A DNA stretch of 63,525 nucleotides, filler included, from Reclinomonas americana ATCC 50394 (lineage: Eukaryota): the NCBI GenBank assembly GCA_048213135.1. It is 13 parts of 9 records of this genome, joined end to end, with 100 filler letters (N's around TTAATTAATTAA, not from the genome) between each part and the next. Parts side by side here need not be neighbours in the genome. Positions count along the whole stretch, not along the records: positions 20,488 to 24,210 come from PS015755.1; positions 24,311 to 28,100 come from PS015756.1; 11 more parts are not named here. The stretch is one strand, 5' to 3'. This document shows positions 21,227-24,435 of this stretch, in pieces. Numbering within the stretch: the stretch's first letter is position 1; every line of letters begins with the position of its first letter. Both the position numbers and the translations under genes were made by a program. The notes below the pieces were generated by a model. It did no database searches and was not told the origin of the DNA. It was given only the letters and a program-made list of their open reading frames with translations.

Positions 21227-23657
21227 TCACACGCTCTGCAGCTTGGCTTGCAGCTCCTCCAACACAACCGAGTGCTCGTTAACCGCGTCGATCAAGAGCG
21301 GCACAAGACGCTCGTAGGCCACCAGCTTGTACGGTGGCGCATGCGCCGTGCCAGCGACATCGACGACCAGGCCGTCGACCTTCGCGTTGCTAAAGGCCAT
21401 CTCCAAATCTTGTGCCATGATGCCAACCTCGCGAACGCCAGGTGCAGTGCCGGGAATGGGTGTGCTGGCGCACCACTCGTAGGAGTAGGCGTGCACGTTA
21501 CGGAGGCGTGCGGCAACACCGTCATCCAGTCGCCGGAGGTGCGTCTTGTAGCGGCGATCGGATCCTCGGAGGCTGACCCACAGACGGGAGAAACGGACGG
21601 ACAGTGAGAGCGCGATAAGAGAATGACAGAGGTACACAAACGTCTACAGACCGTTGGAGGACCATGAGCGTAACGTCATCCGTATCAACGCCGCAGTCAG
21701 CCAGCGTGGTGGAATACGTCGGTGGCAGCTCTCGAGAACCGAGTAGCTAATAGTCATCGTGCACACGAAAAAATCACAAAGCGTGCTCGCAAACAGCGGG
21801 CTTTCCACGCAGAAACGCAACGAGTCTAATGTCCACTGGATTTACGTTGGTCCAGCGGGGAACGGAAACTTGTAAAGCTGCCACGCGCGAACATGGCTGG
21901 TAAGCACTCGATCCACAACAGGTGCGACACATTCTCCGTCACCTTCAATCAAATCGAGAACCTTGTAGTCGGTGCGGACACGCACTGCGTCGCAAACGGT
22001 GGTGAGCAACAGTCACTGGCGGATTCAGTGCGTTGGGCAACGATACGCACCGCTATGCGTTGTTTGCCCGTCACGAATGCGAATGCTGATTTGCCGACCA
22101 TTGCTACACAGTGAGCAGCGTGAGTGACGTGCTGCGCAATCCATCGGTCATGCATATGACTGAAGCGCGACTCTACCGTGGGGTGCAGACAACCTCGCAT
22201 GAATCGACGAGACCGAGCGTGCTGACCTCGTCAGTAAGTGATGTCAACTCGTGACCTCGATACGACAGCGAGAAGGGCCGCGCGAACTGCGTGATGCCTG
22301 CAATGCGAAGCGCTTCGTTACTGGAAGTAGTCATGACAACTGCGAGTGTGCGGATCAACGCACGGTGTATGAAACCGTAGACGGTGTCGAGTGGAGAGAC
22401 GGTCACTGTGAAGATGACAACTAAATGAGTGGGGGACGGAAAGTTAACACGTGTTGCATGTTTGAATTACCGCGCTCCGTCGCACTCCCGCATCGCACGT
22501 TGACTCTGATGCTGTGTGCAATTGAGTGTGAGAGTCTGTTGACAGCGAGGAACGAGTTGTGGTACGGCGCGACGCACTTGCTGCACGCATGCAACGTCAC
22601 GTTGAACTTGTCGGGATCAGCAACAGAATTCACAGGCTGATAATTGTCTGCGTAAGTGCAGCTTCCAAAGGGGCGATTACTGAGCACTACCCAATCCACG
22701 CTGTGCACTGCCGAATCGTTGAAGGCCGCTGCCCAAGCGTTGACATGATGTCAGCCACAGTACTCTGGAGTTCAAGCAAGGCTCGAGCAATTCAGCGACG
22801 AACCGTGCAGGCCTTCCACAAGACTCGTTCGGGCCGGCACATCGGCTGAGTCGCACATACTCGTAAGAGAGGAGCAAAAGTGACGTGTTTTTGCTGGGTG
22901 CTCATCGTACCTGATCCCTGTCGACCATCCTTCATGATGCCAGTGACCGTCACACATCGGCCGAGACGCACCTCTTGTGACACCTGATGACGGATAAGTG
23001 AGTGCCCACAGACGTGGAAGCGGAAACATGCTGTTCACGCACCATCTCTCGCACTTCCTCCCGTTGCACAGCATCCGCTCCTGCCTGCACCGATCGACCT
23101 GCAGCACCACCACCACCGGCATCGCCTCCGACAGCCTGCATCCCAGCTTGCAGTCATACCATGTGCCACGTGACAAAGAACCTCCTTCGACTCCTCACCT
23201 GCAGGCGGTCCTCCAGTTGCAACACAAGCCCGACAATCTGCTGCTCCAGCTGCTCCATGCGCTGCGTGACACGAAGAGGAGAGAGAACGAGAGATCACTC
23301 AAGATAGATGCATATTGGCGGACGACTTGCAAAACGAACCTCTGCCTGTTGCTCCCTCTCCGTGATCCACATGCGCTCGAGCTGCACAAGCAGTGATCAC
23401 CCTCTGTTTCTGTCACTTGACAACAGCCTCTCTGTTTCACCCACCGCCACTCTCTCGTCGCGCTCACTCTGCAGACGTCGCTCAAGGCTGCGGATTTCCT
23501 GCATGCGCATGGATGACATCGGAGAAACTTTGACTCTCTCTCTCTCTCCTTTGTGCTCACACACCTCATGGCGAGCTGAGCGCTCTTGTGCCACTTGCTC
23601 CGTCAGTGCTGCGAGCTGCGCGTTCATCTGTCGGAGAGCAGCTGCTGTGTCGCTCAT
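21227..23657 (-). CDS. Coiled-coil + tandem ubiquitin-like domains + Peptidase S74 (intramolecular chaperone auto-processing) protein, copy A
   Basis: Spliced C-terminal half: IRVNVRCGSATERVTVSPLDTV..FSLSYRGHEL..LGLVDSCEV (UBL), QISIRIRDGQTTHSVRVRTDYKVLDLIEAL..VDIRLLLGSREL..TTLADCGV..VTLMVLQRLRG (UBL), then SDRRYK..YSYEW..GIMAQDL..VAYERLVPLLIDAVNE (S74). Confidence 0.8.
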
Positions 23658-23774
23658 GATTGGACAGCAAAGAAGGTGCAGGACAACAGAACTCAGAACG
23701 CCACCGACCATGCGTACACTGTGTCACTGCGTCACTGCTAACAGGCAAGCGCTCTTCTCCTCGCGATCGTCCAC

Positions 23775-24435
23775 TCACACGCTCTGCTGCAGCTTGGCTT
23801 GCAGCTCCTCCAACACAACCGAGTGCTCGTTAACCGCGTCGATCAAGAGCGGCACAAGACGCTCGTAGGCCACCAGCTTGTACGGTGGCGCATGCGCCGT
23901 GCCAGCGACATCGACGACCAGGCCGTCGACCTTGGCGTTGCTAAAGGCCGTCTCCAGGTCTTGCGCCATGATGCCAACCTCGCGAACGCCTGGTGCAGTG
24001 CCCGGAATGGGTGTGCTGGCACACCACTCGTAGGAGTAGGCGTGCACGTGGCGGAGGCGTGCGGTAACACCGTCGTCCAGTCGCCGGAGGTGCGTCTTGT
24101 AGCGGCGATCGGATCCGCGGACACTGAGAGATGCACAGTAAGAACACACTCTCTGCCACGGAGGAGACGTAGCGACACTGCAAGACATCGACACAGACCG
24201 TTGGACTACANNNNNNNNNNNNNNNNNNNNNNNNNNNNNNNNNNNNNNNNNNNNTTAATTAATTAANNNNNNNNNNNNNNNNNNNNNNNNNNNNNNNNNN
24301 NNNNNNNNNNTTACTCTCACTCTCTCCTCTGTGTCCACACACCTCTTGGCGCGCCGATCGCTCCTGTGCCACTTGCTCGGTCAGTGCTGCGAGCTGCGCG
24401 TTCATCTGTCGGAGAGCAGCTGCTGTGTCGCTCAT
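23775..24435 (-). CDS. Tandem paralog (copy B) of the UBL-S74 gene; middle lost in the assembly gap
   Basis: Near-identical S74 exon preceded by spliced VVQR|VRGSDRRYK; same N-terminus MSDTAAALRQMNAQLAALTEQVAQERSAR at ~24345-24435. Confidence 0.75.

Follow-up and report, generated by a model that had tools for sequence, protein, structure and literature searches.

Two settings are known for Peptidase_S74 (ICA) domains: they cap viral fibres for maturation, and they act as the switch that releases MYRF transcription factors. The C-terminal ICA domains of phages are released after folding. Polyubiquitin, ubiquitin-ribosomal fusions and other precursors of ubiquitin-like proteins (UBLs) are cut after Gly-Gly by deubiquitinases or UBL-specific proteases. 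One Gly at the C-terminus suffices for the activation of ATG8 and UFM1.

According to the accessible part of the literature on the ICA family (PMC3742443), a Ser/Lys dyad cuts the chain before the Ser, which requires trimerization as well as a C-terminal zipper helix. In MYRF and Dictyostelium MrfA, this trimerization-dependent cleavage frees an N-terminal trimer. Across the ICA family, known passengers terminate in a fibre or a trimeric beta-helix rather than a globular domain. For Tetrahymena BUBL, the available excerpt of PMC8616854 reports a UBL fused directly to the self-processing domain BIL2 and liberated or dispensed without a deubiquitinase. S74 fibre genes are described, in the portion of PMC12220804 at hand, as occurring widely among polinton-like viruses that have integrated into protist genomes; in these fibres, S74 stands at the C-terminus of modular proteins of up to 3.9 k residues, which carry laminin-G, collagen and BppL_N modules and lie inside viral elements.

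Here we describe an S74 gene of Reclinomonas americana ATCC 50394, present in two copies (A and B). The window, that is, the whole stretch of DNA that was analyzed (63,525 nucleotides), consists of 13 assembly pieces chained by 12 artificial 100-base linkers. With MYRF and MrfA, the gene shares its eukaryotic nature, the S74/ICA domain and the Ser-x4-Lys dyad. Unlike MYRF, it lacks an NDT80-type DNA-binding domain (Pfam, all ORFs and exons of the gene) and has no transmembrane or lumenal part, both copies stopping 111 residues after the Ser; its passenger consists of a coiled coil and putative UBLs. With the solved phage ICA domains (K1F endosialidase, 3gw6; GA-1 neck appendage, 3gud; T5 L-shaped tail fibre pb1, 4uw8), it shares the terminal, C-terminal position of the ICA domain and the catalytic motif, and the nearest sequence relatives of its S74 domain are of the phage type. 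Phage passengers, however, are triple beta-helix or fibre domains that typically end in ITAYS, A or T before the Ser, whereas here a ubiquitin-like tail ends the passenger and the gene has 12 introns and lies on a eukaryotic contig.

As in polyubiquitin and other UBL precursors, extra residues would have to be removed from behind an R-L-R-G tail before its Gly is exposed; unlike in those precursors, release would be the work of the following domain itself, which would cut behind a single Gly and in a trimer only. The gene resembles BUBL in that its putative UBL likewise adjoins a self-processing domain. BIL2 is Hint/intein-like, acts by an acyl shift and makes the isopeptide bond itself without ATP, whereas the S74 domain is a Ser/Lys hydrolase that would merely expose a carboxylate, and no Hint or intein family match was found in the gene's ORFs and exons (Pfam). 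The analogy with ciliate Hint/UBL fusions drawn in the preliminary description is apt in idea, but the chemistry differs, S74 hydrolyzing and BIL splicing (PMC8616854, as excerpted). Polinton-like virus fibres, as far as the portion of PMC12220804 covers them, have in common with the gene a C-terminal S74 domain encoded in protist DNA; the gene differs from them in being small and intron-rich and in having none of the above modules. No description was found of an arrangement in which putative UBLs ending in ...RLRG directly precede an S74 domain.

Gene model of copy A

Copy A was modeled at positions 21227..23657 on the minus strand, on which all gene features given below lie, with 13 exons and 12 GT-AG introns of 50-146 nt, yielding 515 codons plus a stop. 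In the predicted splicing, a coiled coil is followed by a middle region, the sequence ...QRLRG-SDRRYK... and the C-terminal Peptidase_S74 (ICA) domain. The start codon lies in exons 1-4 (23657-23565, 23498-23445, 23381-23340 and 23261-23199), which encode an N-terminus of about 85 residues with a charged, helical and coiled-coil-like character. Judging from its composition, this N-terminus probably forms a coiled coil, and weak matches to coiled-coil families were obtained for these exons in Pfam, below the cut-off (Macoilin, E 0.0046). Exons 5-8 (23135-23043, 22983-22911, 22845-22804 and 22728-22471) encode a Gly/Ala-rich linker and segment a; they gave neither a Pfam match nor similarity to ubiquitin by Smith-Waterman alignment or ubiquitin HMM. 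Most of segment b is encoded by exon 9 (22177..22420), and segment c, with a tail ending in QR(LRG), by exons 10-12 (22103-22051, 21984-21893 and 21746-21652). Both segments are candidate ubiquitin-like domains.

Intron 12 (21573..21651; 79 nt, GTCTGT...CAG) creates the RLRG-Ser junction. When exon 12 (donor GTCTGT) and exon 13, the S74 exon (21227-21572, acceptor CAG), are joined, they read ...VLQRLRG-SDRRYK. The junction codons in exon 13 (21563..21572) comprise the last base of a split Arg codon and Leu-Arg-Gly, with Gly404 at 21563-21565; the Ser codon at 21560-21562 and the Lys codon at 21545-21547 follow.

The S74 exon contains no in-frame Met before the Ser and therefore must be spliced. 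From the sequence, we infer that the upstream exons are spliced to it. ORF plus GT/AG rules alone do not fix these exons, permitting about 2.8e26 exon paths with a minimum of 7 introns. Codon log-odds were best in the frame of the model for 12 of the 13 exons (sum +82.6 versus -117.5 and -183.3), and those of the copy A introns were negative in all frames. The least certain parts of the model are exons 5-8, notably 6-8, and the donor of exon 11, which was placed at GTTCGC because the frame had to be kept.

Copy B and comparison of the paralogues

A 117-base spacer (23658..23774) separates the ATG of copy A from the stop of copy B. The 3' fragment of copy B (23775..24210, 436 bases) comprises the S74 exon (23775-24123, Ser codon 24111-24113), an intron (24124-24198) and, at 24199-24210, the final 12 bases of exon 12, of which a 13th conserved base spans the junction. 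An artificial linker without strand (24211..24310; 44 N, TTAATTAATTAA and 44 N) joins the piece to the next one, and the interior of copy B is absent. On the next piece follows the 5' fragment of a copy (24311..24435, 125 bases), which covers exon 1 (24343-24435) and runs into intron 1; we assume that both fragments come from one copy. A single uninterrupted piece of 3.7 kb carries copy A and the 3' end of copy B, and the spacer within this one assembled piece shows that the two copies are arranged head-to-tail. The tandem duplication claimed in the preliminary description is not confirmed as such, copy B being represented only by two fragments split by the linker.

The S74 exon of copy B is 95.4% identical to that of copy A at the nucleotide level over 347 bases and 96.4% identical at the amino acid level; the codons of the S74 fragment are the same in 100 cases and differ synonymously in 10 and non-synonymously in 4, with one codon indel. 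The 5' fragment shows 92% nucleotide identity to copy A over 125 bases, exon 1 having 5 synonymous and 1 non-synonymous codon differences. Both copies are under purifying selection, with 15 synonymous versus 5 non-synonymous codon differences in the two comparable exons together, and both retain open frames where they can be compared.

When the two copies are aligned, conservation covers exon 13 with its acceptor as well as the final 13 bases of exon 12 with the donor; the body of intron 12 (75 nt in copy B) is unalignable. The last splice is supported by this retention of donor and acceptor around an unalignable intron. At the 5' end, conservation begins at ATC-ATG and the upstream DNA has diverged; copy B has a stop 8 codons upstream of the ATG and no earlier Met. 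Both junctions read as previously described: a Ser codon directly follows ...RLRG in copy A once exons 12 and 13 are joined, and copy B reads VVQRVRG-SDRRYK, with one Arg codon changed synonymously.

The GC content of the piece carrying the gene is 0.576, compared to 0.55-0.57 for neighboring pieces. No viral neighbor genes are visible on this piece, which is only 3.7 kb long. The assembly is fragmentary and includes bacterial contigs; the window includes contigs that are 100% identical in protein to a Bosea acyl-CoA dehydrogenase.

The Peptidase_S74 domain

The Peptidase_S74 (ICA) domain of copy A (21227..21562) extends from Ser405 over Lys410 to the stop (21227-21229) and comprises 111 residues with nothing after them. 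It is a member of the Peptidase_S74 family (PF13884), with Pfam scores of 35.1 bits for copy A and 36 bits for copy B against a gathering cut-off of 22; in both copies, the match spans profile positions 1-56 of 58, position 1 being the Ser. Of the nearest relatives, 148 of the 149 scanned carry S74, mostly at 45-70 bits and above both copies, and the domain of the gene is therefore divergent. It nevertheless keeps every invariant or near-invariant column of a 27-row alignment (Ser, Asp, Lys, Gly, Ala, Gln, Tyr, Leu and Ala), in which the Lys never varies and the Ser and Asp reach at least 90% conservation. SDRRYK (Ser-x4-Lys) is intact in both copies, so the Ser-Lys dyad reported earlier holds by Pfam and by motif.

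An AlphaFold check of the spliced protein, with its trimeric ICA domain, had been suggested. The domain has the ICA fold: its AF2 model (pLDDT 88.8), with a long C-terminal helix at residues 86-113, resembles solved ICA domains. The top Foldseek match is 7dc3, the MyRF ICA domain (TMq 0.79, E 3.4e-5, sequence identity 18-19%), followed by the phage ICA structures 3gw6, 3gud and 4uw8. The domain is also predicted to form a homotrimer, with a score of 0.90 versus 0.08 for the best control, although three copies are unlike the calibration and the alignment was unused. Of 30 proteins solved as pairs of one chain, 21 reach the mark for this prediction, as do none of 23 that were solved as single chains. 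At least 95% of the contacts are shared between runs, with a partner pLDDT of at least 87, and the first 15 residues, including LRG-SDRRYK, lie in the predicted inter-chain interface. Since solved ICA trimers exist, this pass may reflect structures that the predictor has memorized.

The scanned relatives are all tail-fibre-like and combine S74 with collagen, Gp34_trimer, Mtd_N and BppL_N, with a ubiquitin-family domain in none of the 149. The 150 nearest S74 relatives yielded 151 motif matches; none of these has R-x-R-G before the Ser, and 10 have a Gly directly before it. No search returned a relative closer than 37% identity, so conservation of the architecture is demonstrated for the two paralogues only.

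Candidate ubiquitin-like domains in the middle region

Sequence comparison suggests, only weakly, that the middle region (about 290 residues) holds two, possibly three, very divergent ubiquitin-like domains with a putative beta-grasp fold. Segment c resembles ubiquitin slightly above chance, a weak signal: a Smith-Waterman score of 44 against the ubiquitin consensus (z 4.2, over ubiquitin 10-75) was matched by 2 of 1000 shuffles, and a score of 4.4 bits with a custom ubiquitin HMM by 7 of 2000. The HMM alignment places Gly404 at ubiquitin position 75, so that the Ser falls on position 76, in agreement with the earlier placement of the Ser at ubiquitin's last Gly; the tail aligns with ubiquitin positions 54-75. 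With hhalign against a ubiquitin profile, segment c gave P 0.069 (23 columns, 39% identity) and segment b P 0.12. Similarity of segments a and b to ubiquitin itself was not found by Smith-Waterman alignment or HMM.

For exon 9, 8 of the 10 named family sets shown by the ESM Atlas are ubiquitin-like (Rad60-SLD, ubiquitin, UBL5, TUG-UBL1), at scores of 0.84-0.90, which are lead level by the tool's own calibration. Ubiquitin_4 in Pfam matched this exon with E 0.24-0.31 (11.6-11.9 bits, cut-off 22.8). Scans of single exons gave no other Pfam ubiquitin-family match at E up to 10 and no PDB sequence match (phmmer), and the lack of a PHROG or PADLOC match was counted against the ubiquitin-like reading. 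AF2 on exon 9 alone, as a single sequence without alignment, returned an all-helical guess (pLDDT 43). The two UBLs of the preliminary description are not confirmed as a fold and are backed only weakly, by the shuffles for segment c and the lead-level neighbors of exon 9, but not by any Pfam or PDB match, by the exon 9 model or by hhalign for segment c.

The tail does not end in Gly-Gly but reads R-L-R-G, a single Gly, followed by the catalytic Ser. As modifiers with a single Gly exist, the lone Gly makes a ubiquitin-type end less likely without bearing on whether it could be activated.

Discussion

We propose that the ICA domains of three chains would assemble as a family-type trimer and that, only after this assembly, Ser405/Lys410 would cut the Gly404-Ser405 bond. 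Cleavage would release the 111-residue ICA trimer and a coiled-coil-held N-terminal trimer, of which the three freed chains would each end in a ubiquitin-like ...RLRG carboxylate. The ICA domain could thereby serve as an assembly-gated maturation step, in place of the deubiquitinase of ordinary ubiquitin-like precursors. By analogy with the family, we infer that a free ...RLRG C-terminus would be left, as well as any role that this end may have. The mature trimer would most likely be a non-covalent adaptor or binding module rather than a conjugated modifier. We see about even chances that the locus is, as a whole, a genuine intron-rich nuclear gene with at least two head-to-tail paralogues, encoding a soluble four-part protein of about 515 residues that includes two (possibly three) divergent ubiquitin-like beta-grasp domains and undergoes assembly-gated self-release.

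A distinctly less probable reading, though the most credible of the alternatives, is that the middle region is not ubiquitin-like, RLRG having arisen by chance, and that the protein is a trimeric fibre or adaptor that the host captured or evolved, for instance from a polinton-like or giant-virus fibre gene. The tail-fibre-like character of all nearest S74 relatives, PHROG matches to tail fibres and the wide occurrence of polinton-like virus S74 fibre genes in protist genomes (PMC12220804, accessible portion) fit such an origin, whereas the small size of the protein, without fibre repeats, does not, and twelve spliceosomal-type introns together with host-like GC indicate long residence in the host. 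On the middle region itself, this reading draws on a UBL without profile or fold support and on the relatives that have Gly at -1 without any UBL; it is at odds with the predominantly ubiquitin-like Atlas neighbors of exon 9 and with segment c, which beats shuffles against ubiquitin in register over the whole domain. The top structural match of the ICA domain, the eukaryotic MyRF form, also speaks against it.

An artefact, that is, an S74 exon joined to other exons in vivo, a decaying pseudogene array or a mis-assembly in a contaminated draft, is unlikely. The many exon paths that fit the ORF and GT/AG rules, the exon 11 donor shifted for frame, the incomplete copy B and the linker-chained pieces, some of them bacterial (Bosea), leave room for it. 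Set against this are the open frames and the excess of synonymous differences in both copies, and the conservation of donor, acceptor and start codon while intron and upstream DNA diverged. Further, codon usage backs the exons, the S74 exon is unable to start translation alone, and a single unbroken piece holds copy A together with the 3' end of copy B.

Less likely still is a self-maturing ubiquitin-like system, in which trimerization-gated S74 autoproteolysis would expose RLRG on three chains as a true modifier end, used either covalently, the poly-UBL trimer being E1-adenylated and conjugated via Gly404, or as a high-avidity decoy occupying E1s or deubiquitinases: the tail has one Gly, the S74 domain hydrolyzes and forms no thioester, so that an E1 would still be needed for conjugation, cleavage would yield a coiled-coil trimer with chains of about 400 residues each, which no known modifier resembles, and the UBL fold is putative, the tail similarity resting on 23 aligned columns. 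What speaks for it is the fit of the tail to ubiquitin 54-75 with the scissile Ser at 76, the use of a single C-terminal Gly by ATG8 and UFM1, and R-x-R-G before the Ser, which is retained in both paralogues with one synonymous Arg change and found in none of the motif matches of the S74 relatives. Tetrahymena BUBL/BIL2 sets a precedent, in which a UBL is dispensed by the self-processing domain fused to it (PMC8616854, as excerpted).

If the middle region is not ubiquitin-like, the gene would still be among the few intron-rich non-MYRF eukaryotic ICA proteins, a modest finding. If the proposed assembly-gated self-release is true, it would add a third setting for ICA/S74 domains, self-cleavage flush against a ubiquitin-like tail, performing the job of a deubiquitinase after trimer assembly. 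Such a mechanism would expose a defined C-terminus compactly and without a protease, re-use a phage module in eukaryotic protein signaling and, after ciliate BUBL, be the second natural case in which a self-processing domain dispenses the UBL fused to it. Should the self-maturing ubiquitin-like system prove true, it would for the first time connect the phage-derived ICA module to ubiquitin-like signaling.

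Gene Structure of the S74 Locus

The ORF carrying the self-cleaving Peptidase_S74 domain (21227-21643, minus strand) has no Met ahead of SDRRYK and must therefore be a 3' exon. We modeled the complete gene, copy A, on the minus strand from an ATG at 23657 to a stop codon at 21227-21229, with 13 exons, 12 GT-AG introns of 50-146 nt and a product of 515 residues. Exon 12 (21652-21746, minus) ends in ...VLQ and two bases of an Arg codon, and exon 13 (starting at 21572, minus) continues (R)LRG, followed by Ser405 at 21560-21562, exactly where the preliminary description had placed the Ser codon. 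The partial copy B consists of a 436-base 3' fragment (23775-24210) at the end of the same assembly piece (20488-24210), 117 bases upstream of the copy A ATG, and, presumably, a 125-base 5' fragment (24311-24435) that opens the next piece, beyond a linker. It reads ...VVQRVRG and then Ser at 24111-24113, in agreement with the junction VVQRVRG|SDRRYK described before.

Enumeration of ORF-preserving GT-AG paths gave about 2.8e26 solutions containing at least 7 introns each; the ORF and GT/AG rules alone therefore cannot fix the upstream exons. The proposed splicing of copy A is instead inferred from conservation between the copies, codon usage and reading frame. Conservation between copies A and B extends over the final bases of exon 12, donor GTCTGT, acceptor CAG and exon 13, while the intervening intron (75-79 nt) cannot be aligned; at the 5' end it begins exactly at ATC-ATG. 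Over the two exons that can be compared, the copies differ by 15 synonymous vs. 5 nonsynonymous codon changes. A codon log-odds score trained on 775 codons from three other ORFs of the window favored the model frame in 12 of the 13 exons (sum +82.6 vs. -117.5 and -183.3 in the other frames) and was negative in all frames for introns; some of this signal comes merely from the lack of stops.

A longer form of exon 11 reaching 21846 was rejected, as it has no in-frame join to exon 12; the exon 11 donor was therefore set at GTTCGC. Copy A also has an in-frame ATG farther upstream, at about 23711, from which translation would extend the protein by 18 residues, most of them hydrophobic (23658-23711, minus). 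This start was also rejected, since it is not conserved in copy B, which instead has a stop 8 codons upstream of its start without an earlier Met, and the extension is therefore probably not translated.

The S74 Domain and Its Junction

Pfam recognized Peptidase_S74 with 35.1 bits in copy A and 36 bits in copy B (threshold 22), position 1 of the profile being the Ser. The Ser and invariant Lys columns are kept in both copies, which confirms the intact Ser-Lys dyad reported earlier. When aligned with 25 short relatives, the copies keep every invariant column (Lys, Gly, Gln and Tyr) and every near-invariant one (Ser, Asp, Ala, Leu and Ala). AlphaFold, using this alignment, predicted the domain with a pLDDT of 88.8 and a long C-terminal helix. 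The top Foldseek match was the crystal structure solved for the ICA domain (the self-cleaving trimerization domain) of the eukaryotic transcription factor MyRF (7dc3, E = 3.4e-5, TMq 0.79), followed by the phage ICA structures 3gw6, 3gud and 4uw8.

Prediction with three copies resulted in a trimer (score 0.90 vs. 0.08 for the best control), with runs agreeing on at least 95% of contacts at a pLDDT of at least 87; among solved structures, 21 of 30 pairs of one chain attained the mark applied, against none of 23 single chains. We take the predicted ICA trimer as a likeness to the family and not as proof: a run with three copies departs from the calibration, and ICA trimers have already been solved. 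The inter-chain interface of the predicted trimer includes the first 15 residues, LRG-SDRRYK among them. The copy A protein ends with the ICA helix and has no membrane segment. We conclude that both the junction and the S74 domain are genuine, with good support.

A Plausibly Ubiquitin-Like Passenger

The region ahead of the S74 domain was analyzed as segments a, b (mostly exon 9) and c (exons 10-12, residues 321-404). Pfam searches with single exons gave no ubiquitin-family match except Ubiquitin_4 on exon 9 (E = 0.24-0.31), a sequence search of the PDB returned one chance match for exon 9 (E = 1.3) and none for exon 12, and PHROGs and PADLOC found nothing on the middle exons. The AF2 model of exon 9 as a lone sequence was unusable (pLDDT 43). 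Comparison of the spliced segments with a ubiquitin profile by hhalign, a weak test with this narrow profile (Neff 1.46), gave P = 0.069 (c), 0.12 (b) and 0.53 (a). In the ESM Atlas, clusters neighboring exon 9 carried Rad60-SLD, ubiquitin, UBL5 or TUG-UBL1 in 8 of the 10 Pfam family sets shown, with scores of 0.84-0.90 that the tool itself grades as leads.

Segment c was then compared with a set of natural ubiquitins, 97 distinct ORFs taken from viral contigs. Its Smith-Waterman score of 44 (z = 4.2) was reached by 2 of 1,000 shuffles, with the alignment in register across ubiquitin positions 10-75, and an HMM built from the 97 ORFs scored it at 4.4 bits (reached by 7 of 2,000 shuffles). The HMM places the tail on ubiquitin positions 54-75 and Gly404 on position 75, so that Ser405 sits at the place of Gly76, as the preliminary description had aligned it by eye. 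Segments a and b gave nothing against ubiquitin itself by either method. The proposed pair of ubiquitin-like domains (UBLs) thus has weak support: segment c exceeds nearly all of its shuffles and exon 9 has its Atlas leads, whereas Pfam and PDB matches of note are missing and a and b show no similarity to ubiquitin itself. We consider a beta-grasp fold of segments b and c rather probable; that the passenger is ubiquitin-like is a plausible, but unproven, reading.

Relatives and Their Architecture

A HMMER search with the S74 exon across all protein libraries resulted in 233 matches, none of them close (best 37% identity), and a metagenome scan in 3 loci with just 33% identity; of longer proteins containing the S74 exon, none scored. 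Among the best 150 of the 233 relatives, 149 were scanned with Pfam (one protein of 5,743 residues was left out). S74 was present in 148, accompanied by collagen, Gp34_trimer, Mtd_N, BppL_N and similar domains, and a ubiquitin-family domain in none (E up to 1e-4), so the suggested UBL and Peptidase_S74 architecture did not recur in these proteins. The same 150 proteins gave 151 catalytic-motif matches (in 147 proteins, a few being spurious second matches within one protein), where the residue before the Ser was Ser in 39, Ala in 27, Thr in 20, Tyr in 18, Pro in 12 and Gly in 10. None had R-x-R-G at this place. In open-access full text of PMC and bioRxiv, we found no description of a UBL beside an S74/ICA domain.

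Assembly Context and Tandem Arrangement

The 13 assembly pieces are chained by identical 100-base linkers (44 N, TTAATTAATTAA, 44 N) that carry stops in all six frames, at 7549-7648, 9545-9644, 11383-11482, 20388-20487, 24211-24310, 28101-28200, 37055-37154, 41193-41292, 54307-54406, 58423-58522, 60378-60477 and 62246-62345. Since the window is not one chromosome stretch, adjacency across linkers cannot be trusted without other evidence, and gene neighborhoods there may be artificial. The S74 gene lies on a piece of 3,723 bases (GC 0.576), and the next piece opens with a 5' end from this gene family, likewise oriented, a sign that the order of pieces may to some extent be real.

Judged by sequence, the last three pieces (58523-63525) are bacterial and probably represent culture or reagent contamination of the assembly. 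Their GC is 0.64-0.67 vs. 0.52-0.61 in the other ten, and an ORF at 59337-60425 (minus) matches an acyl-CoA dehydrogenase named from Bosea vaviloviae with 100% identity across 96% of the ORF. Ordinary eukaryotic genes are found on other pieces: flanking pieces hold a glutathione peroxidase exon (19620-19832, plus; GSHPx, E = 3.3e-7) as well as a lysine methyltransferase encoded by a single ORF (25456-26268, minus; Methyltransf_16, E = 3.1e-28), and two long intron-free WD40 ORFs lie at 29260-30702 and 49449-50675 (plus). The database proteins nearest to the WD40 ORFs, many of them bacterial, are just 24-49% identical, and the host lineage appears to be absent from the protein collections searched. 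An Rfam search of 18000-29000 found no family.

Regarding the tandem duplication reported before, the head-to-tail order is real within one piece, but copy B is present as fragments and not as a full second gene. The spacer from the copy B stop to the copy A ATG (23658-23774) measures just 117 bases, a tight fit for a 3' end plus a promoter. The copies might be cotranscribed or undergo unusual transcript processing; a read-through polyprotein is excluded by the stop codon kept in both. Upstream of the copy B 5' fragment, 24810-25099 contains AG microsatellites together with a tandem repeat of 95 bases (2.2 copies, 83% matches).

Proposed Processing and Alternatives

In the ICA family, as one study describes it, a Ser/Lys dyad cuts before the Ser in dependence on folding and trimerization, the C-terminal zipper helix is needed, and the N-terminal fragment ends at the residue preceding the Ser (PMC3742443). 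Accordingly modeled on this family, three ICA domains of the S74 protein would assemble and the dyad would then cut the bond before Ser405, freeing a 111-residue ICA trimer and an N-terminal trimer, held by its coiled coil, with chains ending in ...QRLRG. Should the final domain prove ubiquitin-like, the ICA domain would take the place of a deubiquitinase, built into the protein and gated by assembly.

We favor an adaptor role over conjugation for three reasons: the tail offers a single Gly, the product would be a sizeable trimer, and S74 hydrolysis yields no activated intermediate. In this last point it differs from the BUBL loci of Tetrahymena, where, according to PMC8616854, the Hint-type BIL2 domain splices. 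To this reading as a whole, a freed trimer with a noncovalent adaptor role, we give an even chance; conjugation through the freed ...RLRG end is speculation and very improbable.

The main alternative, which we regard as unlikely but serious, holds that the passenger is not ubiquitin-like and that the gene descends from S74 fiber genes of polinton-like viruses. Such genes are common in polinton-like viruses of protists (PMC12220804). Against a recent viral origin we count the twelve introns of the S74 gene, its small size and its composition, which resembles that of the host. That the gene model is artefactual or the locus decaying seems improbable to us. Overall, the S74 gene would join an ICA domain to a passenger of a new kind, with a ubiquitin-type tail flush against the scissile Ser.
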